Shown one piece after another: positions 12,064-49,600 of a stretch of 55,575 bases of DNA (the stretch's first letter is position 1; each line of letters starts with the position of its first letter). Made by a program: the position numbers and the translations under genes. Source of the stretch: a virus; the IMG/VR virus record IMGVR_UViG_3300001765_000143; one strand, 5' to 3'. The notes under the pieces are model-generated. The model saw only the letters and a list, made by a program, of their open reading frames with translations. It did not search any database and was not told the origin of the DNA.

Positions 12064-12086
12064 AAATAATCCATTTAAAAGTCTAC

Positions 12087-18432: not shown

Positions 18433-19477
18433 AAATAGATTTCAATATATTCACTAATACATCAACAACAATAGTATTGCCAGCTTGTTTGTATGCTTGT
18501 GTATCGCTTACAACTATTTTAAAATTATCACTAAAACCCATTAATCGCAAACATTCTCTAGGTGTCAGCTTTCGCAATCTATCTCCCCTTGTAATATAAT
18601 TATCAACTCCTGCCCTGTGCATTTTTGCCATTGTTGAAAGAAGCGGTCTTGCCACTTCTAAGTCTGTTTCAGGTTTTGAATAAAAATCTCCAGTTCCACT
18701 TGATAAAACATATTTTTTCACTTTTTCGGATAAAAAGTATTTATCCATTACAAAATCACCATGCCAATTAAATTGCTGATTCCTCTTTTGACACAATGCA
18801 ATCTTGCCGTCAATTTGAGTATATTTCTTGTTTAGATTTTTTTCGTTACTTACAAATTTTATACCCTTTTCAGGTAGAAAATACTTTACATCGGGATTGT
18901 CAATAAGTAAATCTTGCATCGTGATTTCAAGTGGTATTGGCTTCGGAAAATCAAAATTTTGCTTCTTTAAAAATCCAACAACAAAAAGCCTTTCACGATT
19001 TTGTGGTATGCCATAGTCTCGTGCATTTAAAACTTGTTTGTAATATTTATAACCAAGTTTTTTTATACGATTCTCAATAATTTCCCAAGTTTTTCCGCTA
19101 TTGTGCGAGAGCAAACCTTTTACATTTTCAAATATAAAAATCTTTGGCTTGATTTCATCAACCAACCGTGCAAATTCAAAAAATAAATTTCCTCTGTCAT
19201 CATCAAGACCTTTTCTTTTTCCAACCATTGAAAATGACTGACAAGGACTTCCTCCAACGAATAAATCTACATTTCCATTGTATTCTTTGCCGTCAATTGT
19301 TTTTATGTCGTTATACCATTGATTTTCATTTATTTTAAAATTTGCAAAATACGTCTGCTTGCAGTATTTATCAATATCGCAAGCAAAGACAATATTATGT
19401 TCAATGTCTAAACGTTGTAGTGCATGTTCTATACTTCCTATTCCACTAAAAACTGTTGCAATATTGATTTTATTCAT
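18422..19477 (-). CDS. DNA (cytosine-5) methyltransferase
   Basis: Motif I ATVFSGIGS, motif IV GGSPCQSFS, ENVKGL, QNRERLF, C-terminal GNTIVV. Confidence 0.9.
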   Translation of the reverse strand: MNKINIATVFSGIGSIEHALQRLDIEHNIVFACDIDKYCKQTYFANFKINENQWYNDIKTIDGKEYNGNVDLFVGGSPCQSFSMVGKRKGLDDDRGNLFFEFARLVDEIKPKIFIFENVKGLLSHNSGKTWEIIENRIKKLGYKYYKQVLNARDYGIPQNRERLFVVGFLKKQNFDFPKPIPLEITMQDLLIDNPDVKYFLPEKGIKFVSNEKNLNKKYTQIDGKIALCQKRNQQFNWHGDFVMDKYFLSEKVKKYVLSSGTGDFYSKPETDLEVARPLLSTMAKMHRAGVDNYITRGDRLRKLTPRECLRLMGFSDNFKIVVSDTQAYKQAGNTIVVDVLVNILKSIYAK

Positions 19478-23972: not shown

Positions 23973-24941
23973 TTATAGTCTCGAATCGAAATAATCTCGG
24001 TACAGATCATAAGTTTCATTTCTAGCAGAGTGTTTGCAATACTCAATCTCCTGTTGCAGAGCTACTGGATCATACTCACTCAAATCCCAATCTATATTAT
24101 ACTCGCCAGCTTCTGCCAGTAGTTCCTCGTAGGTTTCTACGTCATTCATTAGCTTAAGCCAGTTGGTATAATTTGCGTCATAAGGAATATTGTACTTCTC
24201 AGCAAGTTTAAGCAACTCCTCGCTTCCTTCTGACCCTAGCATAGTATCGTAAACCCTTTGAGACATAATAAGCATCGCCTCTCTCGCACTATCCATATTC
24301 CTTTGCATTTGGATTGCTTGAGTAGGGTTTATTAGTAACTTAACTATCGCCCTATGATTTTCACGATAGGCAGAAGCGAGTGCTGTATCGCCGTCTTTAT
24401 CTTGAGCCGTTATGTCCGCATTATAAGCTAATAGCAGTCTGACAATTTCAGTATGTCCGTTATTAGCTGCAAGCAATAAAGGCGTATGATCCCAGTCGTT
24501 CCTAGCGTTTACATTAGCACCATGCTCTAATAGGAACTTAGTAGCTTCAAGACGACCAGAACCAGCAGCGAACATCAAAGGTGTATCTTCATGCTCATAT
24601 CTAATGTCAACATCAATACCTAAATCTAGTAACCTTTGAATTTCAGCAAAGTTTTTTCTTTCTACAGCGTTCAAGAAGTTATCCGCTGGGGATTGATAAG
24701 TGTTATTTATTTTATACCAGCTATTGATAAGTCCTTGTGCTTTAACCGCACTTTGGAACTCCCAACTTAAAGCAGTTTCGTTCATGTTTTTTAATTCGTA
24801 GTTACATGAACCTATTGTATCACAAATAGCCTCTAATGCCAAAGGATATAAAGCTTTTGAGTTGTTATTTTCTTCGCCGAAATCAGCTAAGTTAGTTATG
24901 TAATTATTTGCTATTATTGGTATTTGTTTTTGAATACTCAT
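23973..24941 (-). CDS. Ankyrin-repeat protein
   Basis: At least 3 consecutive ANK repeats: DTPLMFAAGSGRLEATKFLLEHGANVNARNDWDHTPLLLAANNGHTEIVRLLLAYNADITAQDKDGDTALASAYRENHRAIVKLL. Confidence 0.9.
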   Translation of the reverse strand: MSIQKQIPIIANNYITNLADFGEENNNSKALYPLALEAICDTIGSCNYELKNMNETALSWEFQSAVKAQGLINSWYKINNTYQSPADNFLNAVERKNFAEIQRLLDLGIDVDIRYEHEDTPLMFAAGSGRLEATKFLLEHGANVNARNDWDHTPLLLAANNGHTEIVRLLLAYNADITAQDKDGDTALASAYRENHRAIVKLLINPTQAIQMQRNMDSAREAMLIMSQRVYDTMLGSEGSEELLKLAEKYNIPYDANYTNWLKLMNDVETYEELLAEAGEYNIDWDLSEYDPVALQQEIEYCKHSARNETYDLYRDYFDSRL

Positions 24942-25037: not shown

Positions 25038-25943
25038 TTACTTTTTCAATCTCAGTAATTTTGTTCTTTCTTCTTTAATAAGTTGGATATATTCCTCAAG
25101 AGTCATATCATCAATGCTTTTATTTATTAAATTTTCTCTAAAAGAAACCAAGATTTGATTAAACTCTGCTTCTAACTCATCATAATCAATCTTCAATCGC
25201 GGCTTATCTTCGTTATAAATAAAATAGTTATTGTCATCAGGAATTGTCATTAAAAAAATACTGCTATAAAAATATAACATATCTTCTTTATTTTTTTTTA
25301 AATCACCTATTTTACACCATAAATTTTTTTCTAAACAATTTAGTATTTTTCCCTTTAGTTTCGTTAATTCATCATCAAAAACTTTTTGCATCATATCGTC
25401 TGCAAAATAACAATTTTTAAGTACAGGGCTATTAATTAAAAAACCTTCACATAGACAATAGAGCGATATTGTCTGCCCTTTGTATAAATTAGCTAAACTA
25501 GATCGGTATTCTTTATCAAAATAAGCATCAATATAATAAAACATTTCATTTGTTTCTAAACGAAGATAATATTGCTCACCAATACCTCTATTAATTGATT
25601 CTATTATACCAGTTACAAATAAGAACTGACCTCTATACTTCTCATCAGCTTTTATTTCATTTGCGAAATAATCCGCAAAAAGTTTAGTTGCATTAACATT
25701 TATTGCATTTTCGTTTACAGATGAAGAAAGTATTTTATAAATAAACGTCTCTAGAAGCTCATTTTGTTGATTATTTAATATTATTTTTGTAGATTTACTA
25801 TTAGGCGATAATTCAATTTCAGTTATATTTTTCTTATTAAAACTTGACGAGACAAAGTAAGTATCTAATTTTTTAGATACAAACCATACAAGAATTAAAG
25901 CTATTATAATCGATAATAATAATAGCTTTTTTTTAGTTTGCAT
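25038..25943 (-). CDS. N-terminally anchored protein with OB-fold (tRNA_anti-like) domain, paralogue A
   Basis: TM segment LLLLSIIIALILVWFV; ATKLFADYFANEIKADEKYRGQFLFVTGIIESINRGIGEQYYLRLETNEMFYYIDAYF...GQTISLYCLCEGFLINSPVLKNC. Confidence 0.6.
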   Translation of the reverse strand: MQTKKKLLLLSIIIALILVWFVSKKLDTYFVSSSFNKKNITEIELSPNSKSTKIILNNQQNELLETFIYKILSSSVNENAINVNATKLFADYFANEIKADEKYRGQFLFVTGIIESINRGIGEQYYLRLETNEMFYYIDAYFDKEYRSSLANLYKGQTISLYCLCEGFLINSPVLKNCYFADDMMQKVFDDELTKLKGKILNCLEKNLWCKIGDLKKNKEDMLYFYSSIFLMTIPDDNNYFIYNEDKPRLKIDYDELEAEFNQILVSFRENLINKSIDDMTLEEYIQLIKEERTKLLRLKK

Positions 25944-27341: not shown

Positions 27342-27986
27342 TTATCTGTTGTATTTTTCTAAAATTTCTTCTGTTAGATTACTAATTTCTTTTGAAGCTA
27401 AGGCATCTTTAGCAAAGTCCTCAATAACTGTTGAACCTATTGCAGCGGTTTCTACATAAGAAACTCTTTGGCAAATATGACTTTCTAAAACATCCATACC
27501 GTAATGCTCTAAGGCCTGCGCTACATCTCTACCTACCGCCGTATTAACTATCTTTCTATTAATTAAAAAAGCGCACTTTATATCTTTTATTCCTTCTAAA
27601 GGTTCCGAAACTTCTTTTATTAAGCTTACAACTTCGCTAGCTGCCCATATGTCGTAAGGAGATGGTTGCACAGGCATTATAACAAGATCGCTGGAAACAA
27701 TTGCTGATTTAGCTACATCATAAATACGAGGTGGTCCATCTATAATTATATGATCATAATCCTTGCTTAATTTCTTAATTTCCTTATGAATTATTGGTTT
27801 TGTAATGCTAACTACAGTAAATATTCCCTCCTTTCTTCTAATTGAAGCCCAATCAAGAGAGCTATTTTGTGGATCCGCATCTATTAAAAGTACTTTATGC
27901 TTCTTTAAAGCTAAAGCAGTAGCTACATTAATTGATAGTGTAGTTTTGCCTACACCGCCTTTTTGATTTAAAAATGATATAATCAT
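27342..27986 (-). CDS. parA: ParA/ParF-type partition ATPase (type Ib)
   Basis: Deviant Walker A NQKGGVGKTT, LLIDADPQ, IIIDGPP; 214 aa. Confidence 0.9.
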   Translation of the reverse strand: MIISFLNQKGGVGKTTLSINVATALALKKHKVLLIDADPQNSSLDWASIRRKEGIFTVVSITKPIIHKEIKKLSKDYDHIIIDGPPRIYDVAKSAIVSSDLVIMPVQPSPYDIWAASEVVSLIKEVSEPLEGIKDIKCAFLINRKIVNTAVGRDVAQALEHYGMDVLESHICQRVSYVETAAIGSTVIEDFAKDALASKEISNLTEEILEKYNR

Positions 27987-28488: not shown

Positions 28489-28544
28489 ATAACTACGCAG
28501 AGCTAAATGTTAACTTTGAGAGAAAATAATTAATTGGAGTCGTG

Positions 28545-29453
28545 ATGAAATTTTTGGTCAATATAGTTTTACCAGCTACTGTGGTTTGTATTATTATAGT
28601 CATTACTATAAATGTGTTAAGGGATAAAAACCAGCTACAAATTTATGTAGCACCAACGATTGGTAACGAGGAAATAGTCGATAATAAGCAGAATAATTCA
28701 AGATTACGTTTTACAGATAAACAAAGCAAATTCATGCACTTACTTCTTAATGAAGATATCAATAAATACATAAACTACAAAGATGCAGGTACTTTGTATC
28801 GAGACATTATTAAAGATCGGAATATAGTTAAAGTTAAAGCAAGTAAGCTTTTTAATGATTATCATTCAAATGAAATTAAAGCAGATAATTTATATAGAGA
28901 TAAAGAAATAATACTTACTGGTACTATTTCTTCTATTGATCGCAGTATAGGTAATAATTATTATCTTTCCTTGTCAACAAATGAAATGTTTTATACTGTA
29001 CAAGCCCATTTTGGAGAAGAATATAAATCTATATTAGCTGAATTAACAAAGGGTCAAAAATATACAATGCATTGTATGGGGAATGGAATGTTAATACAAT
29101 CACCCATATTAAAAAATTGTAAACCCATCCAAGTATGGATTGATTCAGAAGTAGAAAGTTTATTTTTTACATTAAGCAGAGCTATTGATAGTAATAAAAG
29201 TATTAAAGAAATGCTAGAAGATAAAAAAGGTATGCAAGCATTTATACTAATAGGCGGTTTTATTCTAGCTTTAAATGAGGATAGCCCTTTGTTGGATAGC
29301 AGCGATATTGACAAAAAAGAAAAGTTATTTGAGACAGAAGTCAAAGAATTTTCTAATTTCATACAAAAAATAACACCTCAAATAAAAGAACAAAACCTAG
29401 GTGTTAAAGATGTTATTCACCTTTATAAAGAACATAAAAAAATAAATAAGTAA
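28545..29453 (+). CDS. N-terminally anchored protein with OB-fold (tRNA_anti-like) domain, paralogue B
   Basis: ASKLFNDYHSNEIKADNLYRDKEIILTGTISSIDRSIGNNYYLSLSTNEMFYTVQAHF...GQKYTMHCMGNGMLIQSPILKNC; ATG at 28545 (the track GTG is at 28542). Confidence 0.6.
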   Translation: MKFLVNIVLPATVVCIIIVITINVLRDKNQLQIYVAPTIGNEEIVDNKQNNSRLRFTDKQSKFMHLLLNEDINKYINYKDAGTLYRDIIKDRNIVKVKASKLFNDYHSNEIKADNLYRDKEIILTGTISSIDRSIGNNYYLSLSTNEMFYTVQAHFGEEYKSILAELTKGQKYTMHCMGNGMLIQSPILKNCKPIQVWIDSEVESLFFTLSRAIDSNKSIKEMLEDKKGMQAFILIGGFILALNEDSPLLDSSDIDKKEKLFETEVKEFSNFIQKITPQIKEQNLGVKDVIHLYKEHKKINK

Positions 29454-37447: not shown

Positions 37448-37882
37448 ATGACAAAAACAAAAAGCCATCTTTTTCAAAAAGGTAGTGTCGCTAATCCCAA
37501 GGGGAGACCTAAAGGAACAGTTAGCGAATACAAAAAGAAATTCATGGAGATACAGAAGTTAGCGGCTAATGATGCATGCGCTGTATATAATGAAATTCGA
37601 GAAAAGATGCTAATGGGTGAATCATGGGCTTATCAATTATATGTTAAGGACTTTATTCCTAAAAGAGCGTTTGAACCGACTATCTTAGTTGAGATCGAGA
37701 AAGGTAAGAATAGGGGGGATTCAGTTATAGAAGCATTGCCACAGTTTGTAGAGCTTACGCATGATGAAGCAATGAACGAGATTAGGACATTGAAAGGCCT
37801 TGATCCAGAAGCTAACGCAGGACTAAGTAGCATAAAAATTACACATAGCATAAAGCGCAATGAAAACGAGATGAAATGTTAA
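37448..37882 (+). CDS. terS: Terminase small subunit candidate (DUF5681-like)
   Basis: FQKGSVANPKGRPKGT motif; position directly upstream of and overlapping terL. Confidence 0.55.
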   Translation: MTKTKSHLFQKGSVANPKGRPKGTVSEYKKKFMEIQKLAANDACAVYNEIREKMLMGESWAYQLYVKDFIPKRAFEPTILVEIEKGKNRGDSVIEALPQFVELTHDEAMNEIRTLKGLDPEANAGLSSIKITHSIKRNENEMKC

Positions 37883-39174
37883 CAAACGAGCATGAACTTG
37901 ATATCCAAATGCCCGAATGGATTTATCCTATTTATGAAAGACATTATGCTTTCATAGTAGGATATGGTGGTAGAGGCGGTGCAAAATCTTTCTCTATTGC
38001 CGATTATTTGATATCGCAGAGTTTTGACCGCTCTAACTCTAATTGTTATTTCTTATGTGCAAGAGAGATACAATCTTCTTTGTTAGCTAGTGTATATTCA
38101 GTTATAGATATGCAAATTAGAGACCTAGGAGTATCGAAATTCTTTAGCATTACAAAACAAGGGATAACTAATAAAGTTACTGGCGTTAAAATTATTTTTC
38201 GTGGTTTATGGAAAGACCCTGATGCTATCAAAGGTATTCCTAACTTAAAAATTATATGGGTGGATGAGGCGTCTAGTATTTCTAAAAGGAGTTGGAATAT
38301 TTTACCTCCTACGGCAACTAGAAATAAAGGATGTCAGATTATTGTTACATTCAATCCTGATTTTAAAACAGATATTGTTTACGATGAGTTTATTACAAAC
38401 AATAATAGAAAGAACACATTTGTAAAAAAAGTCTCGTACCTAGACAATCCATTTCCGTTGCCACAAGAATTTTACGATGAGTTAGAAGCTTTAAAAGAGC
38501 GTGACTATGAAGAGTATTTACATGTATATGAGGGTCATTGTATCTCTAATTCTCAAATCAAAATCTTCAAAAGAGGTACTTATTGGGATGTTTTAGATGA
38601 AAAAACTTACGTGGAGCATGATAACGTTGAGCTAAAGTTTGGTCTCGACTTAGGATTTACTCCAGCACACCCTACTTTTGGTGTACGTGAATATGTACAT
38701 GATGGTAGTTTATATGTAACGCATGAAATGGTAGAAACAGGACTTGATACCGATTTAATACCTGATTTTCTTATCAAACATTTACCGCAAGTAGAGCATC
38801 ATACTATTTGGGTGGATTCTTCAAGACCAGAGACCATATCAGCAATCAATCGTAAGTATGTTGATAGTATCAGACAATCACTTGATGCTAAAGGAGTTGA
38901 GAAAGGACCAGGTTCTGTTGAAGATGGAATAGAACATTTAAAGTCTTACAAGATGATATATATTCATCCTCGTTGTGAAAGGCTTATCGACAACTTTGAC
39001 AGATATTCTTTTAAAACAGACAGAAAGGGTAATATATTGCGAGATATTGAAAAAGCTAATGATGACGGAATAGATGCCCTGCGTTACGCAGAAGAACAAA
39101 CAATGAAAAACAAGTCTATCGATTATAGTAAATGGGATATGGCTGGTTTAGCAAGTATAGGGTTTAGAAGATGA
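37876..39174 (+). CDS. terL: Terminase large subunit (PBSX-type)
   Basis: Walker A GYGGRGGAKS, Walker B KIIWVDEA, C-terminal nuclease region with DDGIDALRY. Confidence 0.9.
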   Translation: MLTNEHELDIQMPEWIYPIYERHYAFIVGYGGRGGAKSFSIADYLISQSFDRSNSNCYFLCAREIQSSLLASVYSVIDMQIRDLGVSKFFSITKQGITNKVTGVKIIFRGLWKDPDAIKGIPNLKIIWVDEASSISKRSWNILPPTATRNKGCQIIVTFNPDFKTDIVYDEFITNNNRKNTFVKKVSYLDNPFPLPQEFYDELEALKERDYEEYLHVYEGHCISNSQIKIFKRGTYWDVLDEKTYVEHDNVELKFGLDLGFTPAHPTFGVREYVHDGSLYVTHEMVETGLDTDLIPDFLIKHLPQVEHHTIWVDSSRPETISAINRKYVDSIRQSLDAKGVEKGPGSVEDGIEHLKSYKMIYIHPRCERLIDNFDRYSFKTDRKGNILRDIEKANDDGIDALRYAEEQTMKNKSIDYSKWDMAGLASIGFRR

Positions 39175-40601
39175 AAACATTACAACAATTAGGAAATAAA
39201 ATCACTTCGGTTTTTAGAAGCGACAACTGGATCAATTCCTCCACGGGTCTTGGGTTATTAAGCGGAAGGGTAGGAAACACAAGAATTAAAGGCTCTACAT
39301 ATCTCTCTTATTCGGATTTAAGCGAGATGTATTACGGTAACGGTCTTGCTAAAAGGATTGTTAACTCTTTTGTAGATGATGCCTTGCGCAATAATTTCTT
39401 AGTATGTGGTAACGATAAAGTAAAAGATGCATTTAAAAAGTTAGCTTTACCAAAAGTAATTAAAGAAGCATGTTATTTTAGTAGATTATACGGAGGCTCA
39501 ATCATAGTGGCTTTTTTAGATGATGGACTAGACTTAAAAGAGCCTGTTTCTGATACTAGGATAAATAAGATAATTAGCTTTAGAGTGTTCGATAAAAGTC
39601 AAATATCTTGGCAAGAGGCTGATCTTAACAGAGATTTTTTAAGCCCCAATTTCGCTTTACCTGAGTTTTACACTATTACATCATTTAAAAATTCTGCTGA
39701 TACTTCGATACTTAAGATACACGCCTCAAGATGTAAAGTACTTGATGGGATTACTACAAGTCATTTAAAAAGAAGAACAAATTTAGGATGGGGAGATTCT
39801 GTATTACAAGCGTGTTATGACTCTTTAAGATACTACGGTATAGTTGCTGAGAATTCATCAGAAATAATCAATGATTTTATACAAGTTATTATTAAAATGA
39901 ATGGTTTGGCGCATCAAATAATAAAAGAAGGTGGTAAGGAAGCAGTTGCCGCACGTATGGATGCTATAGATGTATCGAGATCAAATTCAAATTTAATCTT
40001 TTTAGACGCAGAAAAAGAAGATTACGAGAAAAAATCTAGCTCAGTTGCAGGTCTGGCTGATTTATGGGATAGGTTCTCAGAATCTGTTTGCGCTGCTACG
40101 GGATACCCAGCTACTAGATTATTTGGTAGATCGCCAGGAGGGTTAAATTCAACTGGAGATAGCGATTTAAAAAACTATTATGATTTAGTTTCTGCTTACC
40201 GTAGCGATGAAATAGAGCCAATAATAAATTGGATTCTAAATTTCATAACTCATCAACAAGAATGGGACAGTGATAAAGATATTGAGTGGTCTTTTGCTTC
40301 TTTAGTTGAGCAAACACCGCTTGAAGATGCCAAATTAAAGAAATTATATGCCGAGATAGACTGGGGCTATATTGACAGAGGAGCAATAGACGCTGGTAAC
40401 ACTTGGCAAGAACGCTTTGGCAAAGGTGAATTTCAGGAGAATATACAATTGAAACAATTAGAGCGTGATGATGATTTTACCGACCAAGAAGAGCTAGGAA
40501 TTATAAATGATCTTAAAAAGGAAGAGATGAAGATAAAGGAAGAGTCTAATACAGAGCGGAAAGCAAAAAAGGTGCTAGATAGCGTATTTAATAGTTTATA
40601 A
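39171..40601 (+). CDS. Portal protein (DUF1073-like)
   Basis: 476 aa, ATGA overlap with terL; N-terminal SDNWINSSTGLGLLSGR...LSEMYYGNGLAKRIVNSFVDDALRN. Confidence 0.8.
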   Translation: MKTLQQLGNKITSVFRSDNWINSSTGLGLLSGRVGNTRIKGSTYLSYSDLSEMYYGNGLAKRIVNSFVDDALRNNFLVCGNDKVKDAFKKLALPKVIKEACYFSRLYGGSIIVAFLDDGLDLKEPVSDTRINKIISFRVFDKSQISWQEADLNRDFLSPNFALPEFYTITSFKNSADTSILKIHASRCKVLDGITTSHLKRRTNLGWGDSVLQACYDSLRYYGIVAENSSEIINDFIQVIIKMNGLAHQIIKEGGKEAVAARMDAIDVSRSNSNLIFLDAEKEDYEKKSSSVAGLADLWDRFSESVCAATGYPATRLFGRSPGGLNSTGDSDLKNYYDLVSAYRSDEIEPIINWILNFITHQQEWDSDKDIEWSFASLVEQTPLEDAKLKKLYAEIDWGYIDRGAIDAGNTWQERFGKGEFQENIQLKQLERDDDFTDQEELGIINDLKKEEMKIKEESNTERKAKKVLDSVFNSL

Positions 40602-40617: not shown

Positions 40618-41463
40618 ATGCAAACACAAGATAATTACATCACTCTTATTGCCACAATATCAAAACTTGCAGATAAGTTACAAGAACAGCAATACATCTC
40701 TTCGCTGCAAGTAAATGATGAGGACATAACTTTTATTTACAATGATGGGTTTAAGCAAAAATTCTCTTTTCCTCAAAACAATAATACCGACACTTTTGAC
40801 TCAAATCTTATTCTTGAAGAGCTAAAGAGAATCTTTAATAAGATTCTTGAAGCTAAATTCACGGAAATTCTGCAAAATTTACAGGATCATCTATCAAAAG
40901 AACTAAAGACATCAATGCCAGTTTCTAAAGCAGGTATTGATGGAAAAGATGCCGATGAGCAGAAGATCATTAAAGAATTAGAAAAAACCATAGCAATAAA
41001 ATTAGAGGCTGGGCTTTTAGATATCAAGCAATCTATACCAGAGCCTATAATTCCAAAGGACGGTAAAGATGCGGATGAAGAAGCCATAACAAAGGCTTTA
41101 CGTTATTATATAAGGCAAGAGAGTGACAAAGTTAATACCGAGTTGTTTGCTAATATTAATGAGGTTATGAACTCAATCCCTATCCCAAAAGACGGAGAGA
41201 ATGGCAGGGATGGAAAAGATGCAGACGAAAAAGCTATAAAAGATGCCTTATTTTTAGAGTTAAGTAATCAAATAGCTATTTTTCAAACCTTGTTTGATAA
41301 CAAAATCACTGAAGGACTGCAAAGAATTATAGCATCCATCCCAGTTCCGAAAGATGGGGTTGACGGTCATGATGGTACAAGTGTTGATGATCAAGTAATT
41401 ATTGATGCAATTTGGTGTATTGCACGAAAAATCACAAGAGTTGATCAAACAAGAGTTACTTAA
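40618..41463 (+). CDS. Periodic-repeat virion-associated protein, N-terminal frame (split gene, continues in 41402-42619)
   Basis: Repeated IP.PKDG.DG.DADE units about every 45 aa; the frame ends 36 nt after an A5 run at 41427-41431. Confidence 0.6.
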   Translation: MQTQDNYITLIATISKLADKLQEQQYISSLQVNDEDITFIYNDGFKQKFSFPQNNNTDTFDSNLILEELKRIFNKILEAKFTEILQNLQDHLSKELKTSMPVSKAGIDGKDADEQKIIKELEKTIAIKLEAGLLDIKQSIPEPIIPKDGKDADEEAITKALRYYIRQESDKVNTELFANINEVMNSIPIPKDGENGRDGKDADEKAIKDALFLELSNQIAIFQTLFDNKITEGLQRIIASIPVPKDGVDGHDGTSVDDQVIIDAIWCIARKITRVDQTRVT

Positions 41464-42619
41464 AGTACTACTGGCTAAAATAGAAGAGATCAGCGCCACG
41501 TTACAACCACTGCGTGGCGAGAAAGGCAACGATGGTAAGGACGCAAACGAAGAAAAAATAACCCAAGAAGTTTTAAAGGTCATTAGTCAGGATACAAAAC
41601 AGTCTCAAGCTTTGCTACAAAAAGAACTAGAGCTGGGATTAAAAGATATCAAGTCATCTATCCCAGTTCCGAAAGACGGAGTTGATGGTAAGGATGGAAA
41701 GTCAATCAAAGGCAAAAAAGGTGATAGGGGCAATGGAATAATAGATGCAAAGATAAATGACGAAGATCGCCTTATTATTGAAACCGATGACAAAACTATA
41801 GATGCAGGCGAGGTATCCATTAAGCGTTTTTCTCGTGGAGGAGGCGGAGGAGGTGGTAGTTTTTTTTACACAAACGAGTTGCCAATGCCAGCTGATGTTG
41901 GTCTTCTTCCTAAGGGTACAAAGTTTAAAGATACCGATTTAAAAGTACTATTTACAAAGTTACTATATGGCTATAATTTTCCTAAATTCGTTGATTTTTT
42001 GATTAGCGGATTATTAGATAATGTAGAAATAGGCTATTCAATAATTGCAGGAGATTATCAGGCTAATTTTATGATTAGCGACCCAGAATTATTACGACCT
42101 GATTCAATTAGTATCTTAAAAGAAGGACAAGTTTTATTAGAGAATCTGCCTAATGTCTCGCCAGTTAATGTTACTCTAGCAGGAGAAACAAAAAATACGA
42201 TAGACGTTATTACTTTCGAGATATTTGCCTATGACACAACAGGGGTCAGTTTTAACAAGTATTTCACTTTAAATTACAAATACAAAATTTATTACGGAGA
42301 ATATGATGATGATATTACTGACACTGGTTTACCCAATCCATTAATTGTACTCAGAGCAAAAGAATTAGTTGTAGATATTTACGGCGAGTATTTTTTTCAG
42401 AATATCCCTTTAGGCTCTAATTATAAATGGTTTTGTTATCCTTCTATACTAGGCGAAAACTATATTTTCTATGATACTGTAAGCGATATTGCCTTAATTT
42501 TAAATGATGTATTGAAGCTCAATATAACTAATGAACATGGGTTGGTTATTGAATATAACTGTTACCGTACTTTAAATGAAATACACGAAGATATTATAAT
42601 GAAGGTAAAAAATGGATAG
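41402..42619 (+). CDS. Periodic-repeat virion-associated protein, C-terminal frame (+1 relative to 40618-41463)
   Basis: Continues the repeats (LRGEKGNDGKDANEE, IPVPKDGVDGKDGKSIKGKKGDRGNG), a G7 linker, then a ~260-aa beta-rich C-terminal domain. Only a TTG/ATG start without SD. Confidence 0.6.
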   Translation: MMQFGVLHEKSQELIKQELLKVLLAKIEEISATLQPLRGEKGNDGKDANEEKITQEVLKVISQDTKQSQALLQKELELGLKDIKSSIPVPKDGVDGKDGKSIKGKKGDRGNGIIDAKINDEDRLIIETDDKTIDAGEVSIKRFSRGGGGGGGSFFYTNELPMPADVGLLPKGTKFKDTDLKVLFTKLLYGYNFPKFVDFLISGLLDNVEIGYSIIAGDYQANFMISDPELLRPDSISILKEGQVLLENLPNVSPVNVTLAGETKNTIDVITFEIFAYDTTGVSFNKYFTLNYKYKIYYGEYDDDITDTGLPNPLIVLRAKELVVDIYGEYFFQNIPLGSNYKWFCYPSILGENYIFYDTVSDIALILNDVLKLNITNEHGLVIEYNCYRTLNEIHEDIIMKVKNG

Positions 42620-43649
42620 TAATACAATTAGAGTGTTATCGTTTGATGGCGGAGGAGTTAGGGGGATAATAACCTCAACTCTACTTGATCTCTTTTGCAA
42701 TCAAGCAGGCATACCCGCAAATCAGATATATAAATATTTTGACATTATCTGCGGCACTTCCATAGGTGGTATTCAAGCTTTAGCGTACGCTAAAGGTTTA
42801 ACCCCATCTTATGTTAAAGATATGTTAATCAATAATGCATCCAGTATTTTTAATTGCACTTATCCAATACCGAGTGGAGGACAAGCAGGTATTGGTACTT
42901 GGGCTGGATATTTAAGTGGAACTTACAGTTCTTTATATTCGCAAACACCACTGGCTAATTTGATTAATGATACTTTCGGTCTAGATACCATTAGCAGTTA
43001 TCAAACAAATGTACTAATTCCAGCTTTTCAACGTTCTAATAGTAATGGAGTTACCAATGTTCCTGTTTATTTTTCTAATATATCTGCTTTGCTTGTTCCG
43101 TATTTATCTGGTCAAAGTGAATTATCGGCTAATATTGCACTAGCAACTAGTGCAGCTCCTGTTTATTTTCCACCAGCTACATTTAATGGATGTACTTATG
43201 TTGACGGAGGAATTTTTTTAAATAATGCTTCTTCAATGGCTTTGTCAGTACAAAGAGCCATTAGATCAACGGCAAATCGTTTTTGTGTTCTTTCAATAGG
43301 TACAGGTTTAGGTAGTATTGGTTATATTCCTAATGAATCTGTTGCCAATAAAAAAACATTATTAAGAGGAGCTCTTGATAATCTTAAGACAATAAAAATG
43401 GTAATGGATGTCTCTATGAGTATTCCACCAGAAGGAGTATCAGTAGAGCAACAGCTTATTGCTGATTATACAGTTGCAAATTCTTATTATTGTAGGATGC
43501 AATACCCGATTGATCTAAGTCAAGAGCCTGATAGTTCATTGGATAATCCTAGCTCTGAATTTATTCAATATATGCAAGATTCAGCGGCGATATATTTTAA
43601 TAATGATATTGCTAATATAACTAATTTTACAGGTCATTTATTAGCATGA
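42612..43649 (+). CDS. Patatin-like phospholipase
   Basis: Oxyanion FDGGGVRG, nucleophile GTSIGG (GxSxG), catalytic Asp YVDGGIFLNN; overlaps both neighbours. Confidence 0.9.
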   Translation: MDSNTIRVLSFDGGGVRGIITSTLLDLFCNQAGIPANQIYKYFDIICGTSIGGIQALAYAKGLTPSYVKDMLINNASSIFNCTYPIPSGGQAGIGTWAGYLSGTYSSLYSQTPLANLINDTFGLDTISSYQTNVLIPAFQRSNSNGVTNVPVYFSNISALLVPYLSGQSELSANIALATSAAPVYFPPATFNGCTYVDGGIFLNNASSMALSVQRAIRSTANRFCVLSIGTGLGSIGYIPNESVANKKTLLRGALDNLKTIKMVMDVSMSIPPEGVSVEQQLIADYTVANSYYCRMQYPIDLSQEPDSSLDNPSSEFIQYMQDSAAIYFNNDIANITNFTGHLLA

Positions 43650-45889
43650 AAGGCGTAAAGGTAAGTAATTTTATAGTTCCGATGAGTGTTACAGACACTT
43701 ACCCTACCAATTTGGATATATTTGGCAGGGGAGGAATACATAGCGTTGACACAATTCCAAATAGGGACTCCATAACTACGGAGCGACGTAGCGAGGGCAT
43801 GCTTTCTTTTACCAAAAACAACGAGTCTATGTACGCCCTTTTAGGAGGGATTACTAATGACAAATGGTTTAAGTTATTTGATTTCTCGGATAATAAGATC
43901 AATTTCAATATTGCCTGCGATACTAATTATGTATTACTTGGCAATAAAGACGGAGTTGCTAAGCCGTCCCCCACATTAATAGATGTACAATTTGATATTA
44001 TCAATTTGCGTCGCAAGATTGATAAAGTAGGGATATTAGAATATAACCATATATGGATTGGAGATTATACCAACAGATCAGTTGCACAAAAGACTATCGG
44101 TGTAAATAATTTGCCTTTATTAGGAGCGGCTCAATTTCCTTTACCTTTTAGCTTAGAATCTATTGCTTTACCAAACCCTACATTTAGCCCTACTTCGCCG
44201 TTAGCTTATATAATGAGTGGGGCGTGGTTGCCTCAAATATATGCTGGTAATCCTGGCAAATTAGATTATACGCAGACAGAAACGATAATATCTAGCTCCT
44301 TAGCTATGACTCAAATTAAGGTAGCTCAGGCACTAAAAAGAATCGATCAAGGCGGATTAATAGTTAAAAGTAAAAACATAAGTTTTTTATGGGAAAATCC
44401 ACTTGCTAATGCAATCCCCGAAGAAGTTGCTCAATTGTACGATTACGGAACGACATATACTTTTGATAAGGCGCAAGCATTAGATGAGATAGATGCGGGT
44501 TTACTAAAGCAAAATGTCGGACAAGGGGTCAAAGGTGATGGGCAATTAGTAAAGGCTATTTCAGGAGAGGATTATGTCGATGCGGTTGTAAATCCTATAG
44601 GATTTGTTTGTGTTATAGATCCTTTATTTCCCAATGTTTCAGGTCGTAAACTTATATCTCCGTCAACTCAAAGGGTAAGAAAAAAACAACCTAATGAATT
44701 CAGTGCGTTTACAGATGTAACAGTAGCAACACCTATTTTTGATGTATTGGCTTTAAAAAGTAAATATTTAAATGTTGGGAGTATAACACAAAAGCTTATT
44801 AAGGGTGATAATGAGGGGAATATTGTTGCTGCTATTGATGGGGAAGATTATATATCTCCTTCCGATGAAACATATGCGACTCTCGCTGAAACCGTTGCGA
44901 ATATATTGGGTTCGAAAATTATTAAAAATGAACAACAAGGAACTGCGCCTTTAGCAACGATACAAGAAGCAAATATTGTCGCAAAAAAAACTCGTGAAGA
45001 AACGCATGGCACCTCTAGCACGGCACTTGATGTTGCTGCTGGAACTCTTGGGGTAGCTTTAGTTGTGGGTGCAGCAGGTGCTGCTTCAGTTGTAGCTTTA
45101 CCTGGTGTGGCTTTAGCTGGAACGGCAATAGCGGCTGCCGCACTTTTTGATTATATATTTAAACCTTTCGGTTCAAAGGAAGGAAGGAATTTACAAGCTG
45201 TACCAGAGCTTACGAATGAACAAAAAATTAATTATACATATGGTTTGTTAACAAAAGGCGGTTTTCTTAATACAAACAATACTTATAAGTCAGTTGATTT
45301 AAATGATTATGCTTATTTAAGCAGTCCTTGGATTGGTGAAAATGGACAATTTAATTTTAAATTTTGTGATACCCTGCAACATACTTTAGGGTTTGATGTT
45401 TACGATAGAGGAAAGGGTACATTATGGTTTGATTCATGGGGAAAATCAAGAGATACAACATTCGGTGAAAAAAGCGAACCAGGACTTCGTATTTTCTCAT
45501 GGAATTCTGGGGGTGATGGTGTTGATTACCAAGGTGAAGGTCTCGCTCCGTTACATATTGGGTTATTTGGATATGATGCACCAAGAAGTCAAAATGTAAA
45601 TAATAGATATAATGGGTTTATTCTTAGATCGGAATTTTATAATCTACCCGGTAATTTAGAAGATAAAACCCCTGAAAATTTTGGTCTTTATTTAGCTTCT
45701 AAAAGTTTTAGCAGTAGCCAACCTAAAGCTGGTTTTGATAGTCTCAATACTATTTTTGAATATGATCTTACTAATTTTAATTTTGAAAAACCTGTAAAAT
45801 TTAATAAGAATTTCATTTTACCAGTAATAAAAAAAGCAGATATTCCTTTGAATCCACCGCTAGGTATGGTATTATTAGTGGAATTTTAA
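43646..45889 (+). CDS. Large fibre-like protein with internal Gly/Ala-rich hydrophobic segment
   Basis: N-terminal VPMSVTDTYPTNLDIFGRGGIHSVDTIPNRDSITTERRSEGML...NDKWF (fibre-type signature); TLGVALVVGAAGAASVVALPGVALAGTAIAAAALF at ~45040-45145. Confidence 0.5.
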   Translation: MKGVKVSNFIVPMSVTDTYPTNLDIFGRGGIHSVDTIPNRDSITTERRSEGMLSFTKNNESMYALLGGITNDKWFKLFDFSDNKINFNIACDTNYVLLGNKDGVAKPSPTLIDVQFDIINLRRKIDKVGILEYNHIWIGDYTNRSVAQKTIGVNNLPLLGAAQFPLPFSLESIALPNPTFSPTSPLAYIMSGAWLPQIYAGNPGKLDYTQTETIISSSLAMTQIKVAQALKRIDQGGLIVKSKNISFLWENPLANAIPEEVAQLYDYGTTYTFDKAQALDEIDAGLLKQNVGQGVKGDGQLVKAISGEDYVDAVVNPIGFVCVIDPLFPNVSGRKLISPSTQRVRKKQPNEFSAFTDVTVATPIFDVLALKSKYLNVGSITQKLIKGDNEGNIVAAIDGEDYISPSDETYATLAETVANILGSKIIKNEQQGTAPLATIQEANIVAKKTREETHGTSSTALDVAAGTLGVALVVGAAGAASVVALPGVALAGTAIAAAALFDYIFKPFGSKEGRNLQAVPELTNEQKINYTYGLLTKGGFLNTNNTYKSVDLNDYAYLSSPWIGENGQFNFKFCDTLQHTLGFDVYDRGKGTLWFDSWGKSRDTTFGEKSEPGLRIFSWNSGGDGVDYQGEGLAPLHIGLFGYDAPRSQNVNNRYNGFILRSEFYNLPGNLEDKTPENFGLYLASKSFSSSQPKAGFDSLNTIFEYDLTNFNFEKPVKFNKNFILPVIKKADIPLNPPLGMVLLVEF

Positions 45890-45914
45890 TACTAATAAAT
45901 ACTATATATAGATC

Positions 45915-46187
45915 GTGGCACTAAAATATAAACCCCTGTTAACTATAAAGGAAAAGACTCTTACTGAGCCTGCCGTTTTTCAATCGTTATCAACTGAGGT
46001 AACTGGTACGGCAAACCAAGTTAAAGTAACACCAGTTGCAAGTAGCGAATATAGCGGAGAAGATTATCAAATAGGGTTACCTGATAATGTGCTTTTGCCT
46101 GGACAATATGTTGGTATCCCGAAAGTTACGGTTTTACCAGTAGACCCTCCTTTATCTTCATTTTTTATATTGGAGAAAACAGTCTGA
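45915..46187 (+). CDS. Small fibre-associated protein (GTG start)
   Basis: (M)ALKYKPLLTIKEKTLTEPAVF...GTANQVKVTPV...QIGLPDNVLLPG; the N-terminus is paralogous to the next small ORF. Confidence 0.4.
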   Translation: MALKYKPLLTIKEKTLTEPAVFQSLSTEVTGTANQVKVTPVASSEYSGEDYQIGLPDNVLLPGQYVGIPKVTVLPVDPPLSSFFILEKTV

Positions 46188-46189
46188 TA

Positions 46190-46336
46190 ATGAAAAAGTT
46201 TAGTCCATTAATCACAATAAAAGAGAAAACAGCAAATAGTCCTGCCGAATTCTTAGAACTTATGACCAGCGAGTCATTGGAAATTGACGAAGATGTATAT
46301 GCTCTCCTACAAGCCTTAAATGATGAGGTGTTATAA
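46190..46336 (+). CDS. 48-aa ORF (below the track cutoff), N-terminal paralogue of 45915-46187
   Basis: MKKFSPLITIKEKTANSPAEFLELMTSESLEIDEDVYALLQALNDEVL; its stop overlaps ATG 46336. Confidence 0.3.
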   Translation: MKKFSPLITIKEKTANSPAEFLELMTSESLEIDEDVYALLQALNDEVL

Positions 46337-48162
46337 TGCCATTATTTCTAAAGTCATTTGATCCTACTGTAGATATATTCGGAAATAATCAGATATTTAG
46401 ATTTAATAATTCCTCAACTCCGTCAGATAATGACGGCGGTTTGTCTTTAGTTAATATGTTTGCTCCTACAGCTACTACTAAGGCTCTTATTAATTTAGAT
46501 TTTGTAAATTCAAGTTTTAAAGGTTTTAGATTCCAACAAGAGTCTTCACTAACTTCAATATATGGTAATTTCTCGCTACAGGCATATTCAAAGTTCGGAA
46601 CGACATCTGATATTTTCAAATATGATGAACAAACTAATACTTTAAATTTTCTAAAAAATACCTCAATTTTAGGTTCTGCTTTAGCTAGTCAGGCTTATGT
46701 TGATAATCATAATTGGTTATCAACCGATATAACGGATTTTAATATTGCCGTAACTAATATTATTACTCCATATAACTATTCTACTAAAGTTTACGTTGAT
46801 GCGCATACTTGGTTATCATCAAGTATTACTGATTTAGCAACAACTGTAAAAGCTTATACATTAAATAGTTTTGCTCTACCTACAGTGGATTTAAATTTAA
46901 ACTCTAAGAAAATTACGAGCTTAAGTAATGGAACGATAGCTACCGATGCAATTAACTTAGGTCAATTACAGGCATTGGGTTTATCAAGTTTAACAACTAA
47001 TGGGTTTCTAACACGCATTGCGGCTAATAGCTATCTTAACAGAACTATAGCGGTTGGTACTGGTCTTGGTATTGCAAATGCTGATGGTGTTGCAGGGAAT
47101 CCAACACTTTCTTTAACAAATTCAGGAGTAGTATCTGGTTCATATACTAATGTTAATGCTACTGTAGATAGCTATGGTCGTATTACTTCAATATCTAACG
47201 GTAGCTCAAGTGGAACAATTACACTCACTGGAGCAATTACCGGTTCTGGTAGTCTTGGTAGTTCTATTTCAACATCGCTAAATAGTATACAATCAATCAA
47301 CAATCTCTTAGCTTTTGAAACAACCACTAACACTGTTGCAAATTATGATTTTCGAAACAGTCTTCTAGGCACACCGTATGGAAGAATTTATTTAAATTTT
47401 AAAAAAACAACAACTAATGGTGATGTTAGACAGTTTATTTTGGAAAATGCGTTTGACAGCAATCAAGCCGGATATACCAACGCATTTTCTTTAGGTTACA
47501 AGTTTAATAGTGCTTACACCAATATTTTTACTTATCAAAGTACTTTAAATGAGTTTCAGTTTTACTGTTTAACTTCTTTTGACGCTGGGGTTAGTCTTAA
47601 AAACAATAATATTCAAAATGTAGGTAATCCTATTCTTGCGCAAGATGCCGCGACTAAGGCTTATGTGGATAGTGCTATTGTAACACCAATATTACCTTCT
47701 GTTATGCACGGATATCTATATAATAATCAAAGTACAAATATAGCAACTGGGGATCACATAAAATTTGATAATGCTGCTTTTACTAGAGGCACTGCTATAA
47801 CTCTTGATACATTTAGTACTTATAGTAACGCAGCTAATACTGCATCTATAGGACGTATCACTTTAGCAGCTGGAAAAACATACAAACTTACTGCTATAGC
47901 ATGTACTGCAAGTTTTGCTTCGACAAGTGCTTATTTAGGTTTGAAATGGCATAATAATACTACTAACACTCCTTTAGGAACAGTTAATACTTGGTGGGGA
48001 GGAGGTTTTAATTATACATCAGGAGGGGCAGTGGTGGCTTATATTACTACTACTGTTAGTACAAGGGTTGAGTTGCGTATTAATAATGTTTTATCCCTTA
48101 CATATCTATACGGCACTAGTGATTCAAATTCAGCAACATGGTTTACGGTAGAAGAAATATAA
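46336..48162 (+). CDS. Tail-fibre-like protein with C-terminal C1q/TNF-like jelly-roll candidate
   Basis: Fibre repeats (ASQAYVDNHNWLSTDITDF / KVYVDAHTWLSSSITDL), INLGQLQAL, NSGVVSGSYTNVNATVDSYGRITSISNG. C-terminal ...GDHIKFDNAAFTRG...GRITLAAGKTYKLTA...VELRINN...WFTVEEI. Confidence 0.6.
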   Translation: MPLFLKSFDPTVDIFGNNQIFRFNNSSTPSDNDGGLSLVNMFAPTATTKALINLDFVNSSFKGFRFQQESSLTSIYGNFSLQAYSKFGTTSDIFKYDEQTNTLNFLKNTSILGSALASQAYVDNHNWLSTDITDFNIAVTNIITPYNYSTKVYVDAHTWLSSSITDLATTVKAYTLNSFALPTVDLNLNSKKITSLSNGTIATDAINLGQLQALGLSSLTTNGFLTRIAANSYLNRTIAVGTGLGIANADGVAGNPTLSLTNSGVVSGSYTNVNATVDSYGRITSISNGSSSGTITLTGAITGSGSLGSSISTSLNSIQSINNLLAFETTTNTVANYDFRNSLLGTPYGRIYLNFKKTTTNGDVRQFILENAFDSNQAGYTNAFSLGYKFNSAYTNIFTYQSTLNEFQFYCLTSFDAGVSLKNNNIQNVGNPILAQDAATKAYVDSAIVTPILPSVMHGYLYNNQSTNIATGDHIKFDNAAFTRGTAITLDTFSTYSNAANTASIGRITLAAGKTYKLTAIACTASFASTSAYLGLKWHNNTTNTPLGTVNTWWGGGFNYTSGGAVVAYITTTVSTRVELRINNVLSLTYLYGTSDSNSATWFTVEEI

Positions 48163-48201
48163 TAAATTTAATCAATTTAATTTAATTTAAGGAAAAAAAA
48201 T

Positions 48202-48516
48202 ATGTCAAAAATAAAAGATGATACTGGTACTCCGGGATCAGAAAAATTAGAAAAAATAACACCAGTCGAGATTAATACTATAAATACTATGTTGCCAATG
48301 GATTATGAGGCTCTTGAGTATCTCTCTTGGTTTATGACAGATAGCCAAAACGTACAGAATTGGGCGGGAAATATTTTTAGAGGCGGTATCGATACTAGTG
48401 ACCCAAGACTTGTAAGTTTACTTTCCGCTGCAAATAAATCCATAAAAGAGACGGAAGACGATATTGCTAAAATAAAAGAGTGTTTGGCAAAAATTATACC
48501 AGTAAATTCAAAATAA
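48202..48516 (+). CDS. Hypothetical protein (possible fibre assembly factor, by position)
   Basis: 104-aa ORF after the fibre gene. Confidence 0.4.
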   Translation: MSKIKDDTGTPGSEKLEKITPVEINTINTMLPMDYEALEYLSWFMTDSQNVQNWAGNIFRGGIDTSDPRLVSLLSAANKSIKETEDDIAKIKECLAKIIPVNSK

Positions 48517-48538
48517 TTTAAATTAAAGAGAGGATAAT

Positions 48539-48739
48539 ATGAAGGATGTAAATAGCGTGAATGATATAGCAAAAATTTTACAACTTCTGCCAAAATATAC
48601 GCAAGCATTGAATAATGATAGCGTTTTATATTTTTCGGACGAAGAGGCGATGGCTAGTCCTGAACGTAAGGTTTTGGTAGTTAAAGATATAATGATGATC
48701 GAAGAATTGCTTACGTATCTAAAGAAAAGCTTAGCTTAA
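48539..48739 (+). CDS. Hypothetical protein
   Basis: 66-aa ORF with SD gagagg. Confidence 0.4.
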   Translation: MKDVNSVNDIAKILQLLPKYTQALNNDSVLYFSDEEAMASPERKVLVVKDIMMIEELLTYLKKSLA

Positions 48740-48760: not shown

Positions 48761-49600
48761 ATGTATAAATTAGGCTTGCTAGTTACTCTTCCTACAACTG
48801 CAAAGCTTAGGTATGAGGAGTATTTACTAGATCTAGTTAGAAAAGTTAGTTTTCTTATAAAGAAAACGTTAGTTATTGATGGTGTTTTTACGGAAGATTA
48901 TAAGAAACTCACAAGAACTGACAATGATTTTAATTATGATTTTGAGAATATAATTAAACTTATCGAAGCTAAAATAGTTTCTGAATTACATCTTTTCTTT
49001 AAAAAAATCACTCGTGCCGCTGTTATTACAGAGAAATTTAATTATAAGGCCGTTGAAAAGTCATTAAACGGCGTCAAGAAATCAATCCCTACTCTAAGGA
49101 ATGCTAAAGTTCAGAGTGAGATGAAGATGTGGGTATCCGAGAATGTAAGATTAATAAAAACAATCCCAGAGAAAATGCTCACTCAAGTTGAAGAGATTGT
49201 ATACACAGCTGTTAGAGCTGGCGTGACCCATACAGAACTTAGTAAAAGATTAGTTGAGTCTTTTGGTATATCTAAAAGAAGAGCCGTTATTATCGCAAGG
49301 GATCAGATCAATAAACTAAGTGGCAACCTAACAAGAGTAAGAAATTTAGAGCTAGATATTGATGAATATAAATGGCTAACAAGTAGGGATGATAGATGCA
49401 GACCTTCTCACAAAGTACTAGAAGGCAAGATTTGTTCTTGGGAAGATGTTAATGTGTACAAGTCTGTTGATAAATCAGTGGATAAAGATGTGGATAACTC
49501 AAGAAAATGGTTGCAACGCTCGTCAATAGGCGGTACAATATCTCATCCGTCTCAAGATGTGCTATGTAGATGCACATCTATTCCAATCATAAAAATCTAA
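48761..49600 (+). CDS. Head morphogenesis protein (SPP1 gp7 / Mu F-like)
   Basis: ARDQINKLSGNLTRVRNLELDIDEYKWLTSRDDRCRPSHKVLEGKI. Confidence 0.8.
   Translation: MYKLGLLVTLPTTAKLRYEEYLLDLVRKVSFLIKKTLVIDGVFTEDYKKLTRTDNDFNYDFENIIKLIEAKIVSELHLFFKKITRAAVITEKFNYKAVEKSLNGVKKSIPTLRNAKVQSEMKMWVSENVRLIKTIPEKMLTQVEEIVYTAVRAGVTHTELSKRLVESFGISKRRAVIIARDQINKLSGNLTRVRNLELDIDEYKWLTSRDDRCRPSHKVLEGKICSWEDVNVYKSVDKSVDKDVDNSRKWLQRSSIGGTISHPSQDVLCRCTSIPIIKI

Follow-up and report, generated by a model that had tools for sequence, protein, structure and literature searches.

A patatin-like phospholipase gene paired with a fiber-anchor-like gene in structural operons of several phage types

Introduction

How phages of obligate intracellular bacteria pass eukaryotic membranes is an open question, one that has been raised mainly for Wolbachia phage WO, where a patatin is no more than a candidate. 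The same question arises from IMG/VR virus record IMGVR_UViG_3300001765_000143, a stretch of 55,575 nucleotides (nt) that was analyzed over its whole length (here called the window) and that looks like a complete, circularly permuted genome of a myovirus-type phage (55.6 kb, ~33% G+C). Eight co-directional genes at positions 40618 to 48739 separate its portal gene from its Mu-F-like head morphogenesis gene, as a first-pass annotation made from the sequence had stated and as the list of open reading frames (ORFs) bears out. Among the products of this block are a patatin-like phospholipase and, directly after it, P747, a fiber-anchor-like protein of 747 amino acids. We report that the patatin gene is tied to the gene for this fiber anchor within structural operons of phages that differ in architecture and are unrelated, which makes the pair a testable two-protein candidate for membrane breaching. 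Where hosts of these phages are named, they are Rickettsiaceae that live as endosymbionts of protists.

The patatin-P747 cassette across phage types

Relatives of the window were fetched in two ways, via the P747 family and via the portal alone, the latter route being unbiased as to the block. The P747 route yielded 3 genome contigs and 46 IMG/VR contigs, and in all 49 of these loci a patatin gene lies directly upstream of the P747 homolog. Four further contexts were fetched via the patatin, and in each of them the downstream protein starts with the same N-terminal motif. In 34 of 42 loci, the patatin stop codon shares nucleotides with the P747 start codon (ATGA), and seven of the remaining eight have a gap of at most 10 nt. 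Judged by these junctions, a patatin gene with its predicted catalytic residues intact is shown to be translationally coupled to the P747 gene.

The cassette occupies at least four layouts. First, it stands between the portal and Mu-F-like genes, preceded by the gene for the fiber-like protein Rep, in the window and in a deposited Trichorickettsia "plasmid" (CP112933). Second, MAnkyphage and many podovirus-type contigs of ~40 kb have it between TerL and a P22-type portal. Third, it follows capsid or adaptor genes in SU10-like contigs, and fourth, it follows a small conserved ORF. Fiber genes and the genes for two small conserved proteins, P104 and P66, are usually found downstream. The recurrence of the enzyme-fiber pair in several phage types argues for a shared structural module rather than one-off cargo. 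Moreover, the window patatin shares 75% identity with its counterpart in L060, an SU10-like contig of the podovirus type, and only 28 to 34% with the patatins of syntenic myovirus-type relatives (L059 and L008 among those compared), indicating that the position has been kept while the allele has been exchanged.

The closest described case is MAnkyphage_25.80 (OP381185), a phage of Megaira polyxenophila, in which adjacent genes are annotated "patatin" and "tail Fiber." Over the full length, the two phages' patatins share 28% identity, the N-terminal 350 residues of its fiber are 41% identical to residues 73 to 421 of P747, and it shares the ATGA overlap and a P66 homolog with the window. However, MAnkyphage is a T7-like podovirus with its cassette between TerL and the portal, it has no Rep, and a single fiber of 1520 amino acids with an S74 chaperone replaces P747 and three further products of the window's block (P90, P48, and P608).

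Another gene shows an uneven pattern of similarity across phage types. A terS-like ORF of the window (37448 to 37882) is 87 to 89% identical to its counterparts in the podovirus-type contigs L046 and L048, with neighboring genes far more divergent, and 62% identical to a DUF5681 protein of MAnkyphage, a pattern that suggests recent gene exchange between phage types of one host group. Separately, the podovirus-type contigs L057 and L061/L062 encode a small protein of the phospholipase D (PLD) superfamily (PLDc_2), which may be a nuclease. L057 (GCA_013566075.1, JACCDY010346438.1) is a podovirus-type genome with its cassette at 8948 to 11821 and the PLD gene at 1 to 509; the assembly, with contig numbers above 346,000, is probably a eukaryote genome project that includes an endosymbiont.

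A CapV-like enzyme

The first-pass annotation of a patatin-like phospholipase at 42612 to 43649 is well founded, PF01734 being matched with 94.3 bits against a curated threshold of 27.7. The protein carries an oxyanion motif, GGGVRG (residues 13 to 18), a nucleophile motif, GTSIG (residues 48 to 52), and the catalytic Asp within DGG (residues 198 to 200), and G13, G14, G18, G48, S50, G52, D198, and G199 are invariant across 42 homologs. Because the catalytic and oxyanion residues are kept, the enzyme looks active, as far as its sequence can tell.

Its best characterized match, over the full length, is CapV (PADLOC PDLC00758, 1.8e-50; Protein Data Bank [PDB] entry for CapV, 3e-17), the cyclic GMP-AMP-activated effector of the cyclic-oligonucleotide-based antiphage signaling system (CBASS), which has the same catalytic motifs. 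One might therefore suppose that the lipase answers cyclic nucleotides, be it a defense effector that the phage has hijacked or a decoy that counters the CBASS of the host, and the full-length similarity to the CapV models of PADLOC and NCBIfam (1.3e-46 for the latter), with CapV as best PDB match, speaks for such a role. Nevertheless, the NCBIfam match (CBASS_lipase, NF041079) reaches 159.4 bits, under the equivalog cutoff of 200, and the gene belongs to a structural operon. No cyclase lies beside the patatin gene in 42 loci, in which the upstream neighbor encodes Rep, TerL, an adaptor protein, or a small conserved ORF and the downstream neighbor encodes P747. PADLOC, run on ten large ORFs of the window that mostly lack annotation, likewise found no CD-NTase cyclase, and the invariant catalytic residues speak against a pure binding decoy. 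A CBASS-related role is thus highly improbable in our estimation, and CBASS was rejected as the main explanation on account of the missing cyclase and the score under the cutoff. The analogy to CapV does suggest that the enzyme may be held latent until triggered, which would suit action at either entry or egress.

The literature that we searched contains no description of the coupling of patatin to P747, of its spread across architectures, of the swapping of alleles, or of the relationship to CapV.

The P747 family

P747 begins with a small domain (residues 1 to 72) that is specific to myovirus-type loci. A universal N-terminal motif follows (residues 73 to 128, MKYDxLYNFISPVTG...), then a conserved domain (residues 129 to 340), and then a variable middle. 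The hydrophobic Gly/Ala segment that had been noted in this protein is a single stretch at residues 459 to 505 (Kyte-Doolittle 19-residue maximum, 2.13), and no other hydrophobic segment was found among the block proteins. The conserved C-terminal domain (residues 530 to 747) ends in a degenerate IPxGxTxxRPxxxxxGMxRYN. In many relatives, IPxGxTxxRPxxxxxGMxR[YF]Nxxx also ends a family of 226-amino-acid proteins (e.g., L004 11500 to 12180), and in the window the degenerate motif ends both P747 (45815 to 45886) and the small protein P90 (46115 to 46184). This shared ending may be a docking element between fiber subunits.

Sequence and profile searches gave no Pfam match and no significant PDB match for P747. 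In the long homologs of the family (1300 to 1520 amino acids), the C-terminal part is replaced by repeats and a Peptidase_S74 chaperone, a domain that Pfam does not find in the window's own P747, and some relatives carry LamG-type domains. The long homologs with S74 and repeats indicate that members of the P747 family are real fibers. In a search of 1.84 billion proteins, a profile of the family hit 229 cluster representatives at E < 1e-10. MAnkyphage is the only deposited phage in which the P747 core was found, a protein search with P747 against PLSDB plasmids gave no match, and megablast of the whole block against deposited phages gave none either.

The tight coupling to P747 with its conserved junction, together with the unusual hydrophobic segment, would also fit a factor for fiber maturation or assembly, that is, a Ser-Asp enzyme that acts on phage proteins or appendage lipids, for instance by acylating or processing P747. 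Some eukaryotic patatin-domain enzymes do transfer acyl groups. However, we found no precedent for a patatin as a fiber chaperone, the homologs of P747 with S74 already own a chaperone, and the closest characterized relatives of the enzyme are the membrane-degrading CapV lipases. We judge this explanation improbable.

The block as a second fiber set

The genes of the block and those that flank it, with positions in the window, are as follows.

39171 to 40601, plus strand: portal gene (PF06381, 3.8e-78; phrog_146, 1.5e-101), the upstream boundary of the block
40618 to 42619, plus strand: Rep, fiber-like, ~670 amino acids if intact; here two ORFs, 40618 to 41463 and 41402 to 42619
42612 to 43649, plus strand: patatin-like phospholipase, 345 amino acids (PF01734, 1.4e-26)
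43646 to 45889, plus strand: P747, fiber-anchor-like, 747 amino acids (family alignment)
45915 to 46187, plus strand: P90, 90 amino acids, related to the C-terminal end of the P747 family (BLAST)
46190 to 46336, plus strand: P48, 48 amino acids, small and conserved, precedes P608-type fibers
46336 to 48162, plus strand: P608, modular fiber, 608 amino acids, with a C1q/TNF-like tip
48202 to 48516, plus strand: P104, 104 amino acids, small and conserved, closes the fiber set in most loci
48539 to 48739, plus strand: P66, 66 amino acids, small and conserved, after P104 and also in MAnkyphage
48761 to 49600, plus strand: Mu-F/SPP1 gp7-like head morphogenesis gene (PF04233, 1.9e-14; phrog_324, 2.2e-52), the downstream boundary

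Pfam searches, alignments, and structure searches support the gene content that had been read from the sequence. The ORFs had also been described as mostly overlapping, which is true of Rep and patatin (8 nt), patatin and P747 (4 nt), and P48 and P608 (1 nt) but not of the other junctions, which are gaps of 2 to 39 nt. A scan for promoters and terminators found no signal that sets the block apart from the head genes, and without such signals of its own the block does not resemble a separate transcription unit. Only Patatin exceeded the Pfam cutoff among the block proteins; the rest gave a subthreshold YadA_stalk match and other weak matches. Four of the products (P747, Rep, P104, and P66) represent newly defined protein families that have neither a Pfam nor a PDB match.

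Rep consists of a conserved N terminus, about six repeats of 45 to 55 amino acids, and, after a poly-Gly linker, a globular C-terminal domain of ~250 amino acids that is highly conserved. Each repeat combines a short collagen-like stretch (IPxPKDGxDGKDA) with a helical stretch. This periodicity is confined to the protein level, as no tandem repeats were found in the DNA of the gene. Rep follows the portal in every myovirus-type relative, and in L100, a distant relative, the protein at this position contains true collagen repeats (G-X-Y). Neither Pfam nor the PDB gave a significant match to Rep in sequence and profile searches, and Pfam also found nothing in the 226-amino-acid family, in a 451-amino-acid protein of L059, or in the small MAnkyphage proteins. 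The repeat protein of ~667 amino acids that had been described is therefore real as to its repeats, but in the window an 11-bp deletion (CCTCGGCTTAA) after 41415 puts its two parts into different frames, as evidenced by comparison with the otherwise identical stretch L051 (run SRR931349); in relatives, Rep is a single ORF of 620 to 690 amino acids. The deletion may reflect true variation, decay of the gene to a pseudogene, or a fault in the assembly.

P90 is 79% identical to its counterparts in L013 and L059 and shares 35% identity with the C terminus (residues 470 to 547) of the P747 homolog of L008. Its neighbor P48 had been taken for a paralog of it. The N termini of the two do look alike by eye, but BLAST links them only through a homolog, the L013 relative of P90, to which P48 is 62% identical over 24 amino acids (E 4.5e-5).

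P608 comprises a conserved N-terminal domain (residues 1 to 110), a variable shaft with YadA-stalk-like and "DAATKxYVD" motifs (the YadA-stalk match being below the Pfam cutoff), and the C1q/TNF-like tip (residues 452 to 608). The jelly roll of the tip, proposed earlier from the sequence, was confirmed by an AlphaFold2 (AF2) model with a predicted local distance difference test (pLDDT) score of 80 to 90 and by Foldseek, whose best PDB match is the C-terminal domain of the bacterial protein BclA (E 1e-7; template modeling score, 0.72 to 0.78). The shafts of the fibers were modeled as monomers with low confidence. BFVD matches of the tip include many phage and giant-virus fiber proteins. On account of these bacterial and phage fiber-tip matches, the reading of the tip as a eukaryote-like adhesin was rejected. 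The "eukaryote-like adhesion domains" that had been suggested for the block are thus ordinary fiber parts, and the fold of the tip is common among fibers and is not specific to eukaryotes.

The N-terminal 110 residues and the tip of P608 occur in different combinations among relatives. On the evidence from P608 and P747, the larger proteins of the block (Rep, P747, and P608) appear to combine a conserved attachment end with exchangeable distal parts, as fibers do, and known fiber domains are found in the P608 tip, in the long P747 homologs with S74, and in the collagen-bearing Rep homolog of L100. Of the two small proteins that end the block, P104 (18 homologs aligned) has no PDB, Pfam, or PADLOC match and is, at a guess, a fiber assembly or attachment factor; P66 (21 homologs aligned; mean column identity, 59%) has no PDB match.

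The window also has the conventional set of baseplate fibers that had been pointed out before, with a Baseplate_J gene at 6101 to 7531 and a beta-helix protein at 8619 to 10184, and the block is, as proposed, a second fiber set that stands apart from it.

Conservation between the portal and Mu-F-like genes

The first-pass annotation regarded the block as cargo inserted where the portal gene is normally followed directly by the Mu-F-like gene. Loci ordered by their portal identity to the window fall into three groups.

Portal identity of at least 36%: ~20 loci with enough downstream DNA; G+C, 0.30 to 0.40; order portal, Rep, patatin, P747, further genes, Mu-F-like gene
Portal identity of 34 to 35% (L100 and L101): G+C, 0.36 to 0.37; order portal, Rep, fiber, Mu-F-like gene, with no patatin
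Portal identity of 26 to 35% (L102 to L109): G+C mostly higher, 0.35 to 0.61; portal directly followed by the Mu-F-like gene

Direct succession is hence true of distant relatives, namely L102 to L109 and the cultured Rhizobium phage RHph_N17 and Edwardsiella phage PEi21, in which the Mu-F-like gene follows the portal directly or within ~0.6 kb, but it is not true of the window's own clade. The rest of the head and tail genes resemble a Pbunavirus/E217-type module: the scaffold, cement, capsid, and connector proteins match Pa193_gp24, Phage_cement, Major_capside, and E217_gp27/gp28, and the sheath (DUF3383) is accompanied by members of the KPP10_Orf10, Dit-like, Baseplate_J, and E217_GP41 families. 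Distant relatives with this module have the portal and then the Mu-F-like gene, whereas the clade of the window has 8 kb of fiber and lipase genes between them. A polymorphic toxin fused to the Mu-F domain was also considered and rejected, the Mu-F protein having 279 amino acids and PF04233 as its sole match above the Pfam cutoff.

Sporadically inserted cargo is contradicted by these data, because the whole clade with portal identity of at least 36% carries the same genes at this position, which is what the first-pass annotation had itself said would refute its view. Since the genes are kept across the clade and absent from distant relatives, they point to an old, clade-defining insertion and not to a sporadic moron. 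In our view the block is best explained as a conserved virion-appendage module, composed of three fiber-type proteins with small accessory proteins, and not accessory cargo.

The same evidence bears on the idea of lysogenic conversion, in which the lipase and the adhesin-like proteins would be bacterial effectors directed at the eukaryotic cell, like Pat1 and Pat2 of Rickettsia. Rickettsiales use patatins in host invasion (PMC13134042), and a ParA gene, an ankyrin gene, and a relative deposited as a Trichorickettsia plasmid are suggestive of long-term carriage. On the other side, the genes lie among late structural genes, with which they overlap, rather than at a module boundary, and no promoter or terminator signal is specific to them. 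The entire clade keeps them, podovirus-type genomes have them too, and no secretion signals were seen in the block proteins. Such a role seems to us quite improbable.

Proposed function of the patatin-P747 pair

We propose that the patatin is a virion-associated lipase that would dock on the P747 fiber anchor and act at entry, a reading to which we give about an even chance. The lipase would be made together with P747 and, still latent, would be carried along with it on the particle. Once the fiber tips have bound a surface, the lipase would cleave membrane phospholipids, and the hydrophobic helix of P747 might aid the breach; further fiber proteins may dock on the C-terminal end of P747. The target could be the outer membrane of the Rickettsiales host, the host-derived membrane around the bacterium, or both.

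The principal alternative is a soluble, late-made lipase that is not packaged and that frees the progeny at the end of infection by breaking down the outer membrane of the bacterium, the eukaryotic membranes around it, or both; its place beside the fiber genes would then reflect late co-expression only. The patatin gene does belong to a late operon, the enzyme has no attachment domain, and an additional membrane barrier at exit is plausible for hosts that, where named, are intracellular. Moreover, the patatin of phage WO has been proposed as a part of a lytic cassette or as an enzyme of entry or exit (PMC9203015, PMC3173496). Other features of these genomes fit an egress enzyme less well. A lysozyme gene (PF00959) lies elsewhere in the window at 12087 to 12539 on the plus strand, and it adjoins two overlapping minus-strand ORFs, of which one (11815 to 12099) encodes an N-terminal membrane segment and a coiled coil and the other (11634 to 11906) a lipobox, LSGC. 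These two look like an i-spanin/o-spanin pair, which with the lysozyme would form a canonical Gram-negative lysis set. That the phage has its own lysozyme and spanin-like pair favors an entry lipase over a plain lysis role. The lysozyme and transglycosylase of MAnkyphage are also located away from its patatin, no holin-like small membrane protein lies beside the window patatin as one does in WO, and a strict ATGA coupling to a fiber gene in four layouts would not be expected of a free lysis enzyme. We regard egress as possible, though on balance unlikely.

Several points weigh against our proposal of a docked entry lipase. The patatin has no recognizable virion-attachment domain, signal peptide, or membrane segment, and that it or any other block protein is present in the particle is something we infer. 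Expression late in infection together with the structural genes would be just as fitting for an egress enzyme. The helix of P747 reaches the hydropathy threshold in just 25 of 36 complete homologs and could instead lie buried at the center of a trimer. An AF2 model built for P747 from a 36-sequence alignment was unusable (mean pLDDT, 43), and a Foldseek search with this low-confidence model returned nothing significant. Hosts are named for three relatives only, most loci being metagenomic contigs. Finally, L100 and L101 have a fiber without any patatin. In L100 (6242 to 9711), the fiber shares the first ~160 amino acids of P747, covering its N-terminal domain and, with weaker similarity, the region of the motif; the map of L101 comes from BLAST alone. 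In these two loci, fiber genes may have held the slot before the lipase arrived, or the lipase may have been lost.

A more far-reaching version of the entry proposal is that the latent lipase and a fusion-peptide-like Ala/Gly helix together form a virion device for penetrating the eukaryotic membranes that lie between the phage and its hosts. We consider this version doubtful. If it were true, tailed phages of obligate intracellular bacteria could cross vacuole, symbiosome, or plasma membranes, and the pair would be to phages what the capsid phospholipase is to parvoviruses, having spread horizontally among unrelated phage types of a shared niche.

Comparison with known lipase systems

Parvoviruses use a virion-borne phospholipase, the phospholipase A2 of VP1u, at entry. 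In polinton-like viruses, fusions of patatin with discoidin fibers have been proposed to breach the host membrane (PMC12220804). These are unrelated enzymes and viruses, and unlike them the window lipase is a separate polypeptide, whose presence in the virion we infer.

Phage WO (Symbioviridae), a phage of obligate intracellular Rickettsiales, carries a patatin that is a distant homolog of the window's (~27% identical, E 2e-12) and for which membrane action at entry or exit has been proposed (PMC3173496, PMC9203015). Among ideas already discussed in the literature, this patatin comes nearest to the pair described here. The WO patatin is thought to replace a missing endolysin, whereas the window has a lysozyme and a spanin-like pair. 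Its gene lies beside those for a small holin-like membrane protein and an ankyrin protein, whereas the neighbors in the window are Rep and P747, and 18 kb separate the patatin gene from the ankyrin gene, which is on the opposite strand. Membership in a WO-type, patatin-based lytic cassette was rejected, there being no holin-like neighbor and a lysozyme being present. The block had also been likened to the eukaryotic association module of WO (PMC5062602), but this analogy fails, as Pfam finds no eukaryote-type domains in the block. The nearer counterpart in WO is its core patatin gene, which stands in a different gene context (PMC9203015).

Hosts and genome context

The link to intracellular bacteria that had been supposed for the window is supported by its relatives, for which the only named hosts are Megaira polyxenophila, Candidatus Megaera venefica, and Candidatus Trichorickettsia mobilis; the Megaera relative is a contig. 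Trichorickettsia and Megaera belong to the Rickettsiaceae (NCBI taxonomy), and Megaira polyxenophila, the host of MAnkyphage, we take to belong there as well. All loci fetched via P747 or patatin have a G+C content of 26 to 37%. The host of the window is likely an intracellular bacterium. The same proteins are recorded under the NCBI whole-genome shotgun prefix JFJP01 and in four other metagenomic samples.

The Trichorickettsia mobilis "plasmid" (L059, CP112933.1; 57,766 bp) is syntenic with the window from the terminase through the head genes and the block to the tail. This synteny indicates that the deposited plasmid is a phage or a phage-plasmid, and we reclassify it as a phage-like element.

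Beyond the late genes, the window encodes an ankyrin-repeat protein, ParA, and a C5 methylase as well as the lysozyme. The ankyrin-repeat protein (23973 to 24941, minus strand; Ank_4, 5.9e-25) lies in the early or accessory region. Ankyrin-repeat genes have also been reported in phages of other intracellular bacteria, namely WO and MAnkyphage. ParA is encoded at 27342 to 27986 on the minus strand, within the stretch of lowest G+C content in the window (~25% at 25 to 27 kb). That stretch is flanked by two divergent, paralogous genes for tRNA_anti-like proteins with an oligonucleotide/oligosaccharide-binding fold (25038 to 25943, minus strand; 28542 to 29453, plus strand). The C5 cytosine methylase (PF00145, 5.4e-82) adjoins an HNH/type II restriction-like protein (17443 to 19477, minus strand), and the two may constitute a phage-borne restriction-modification pair.

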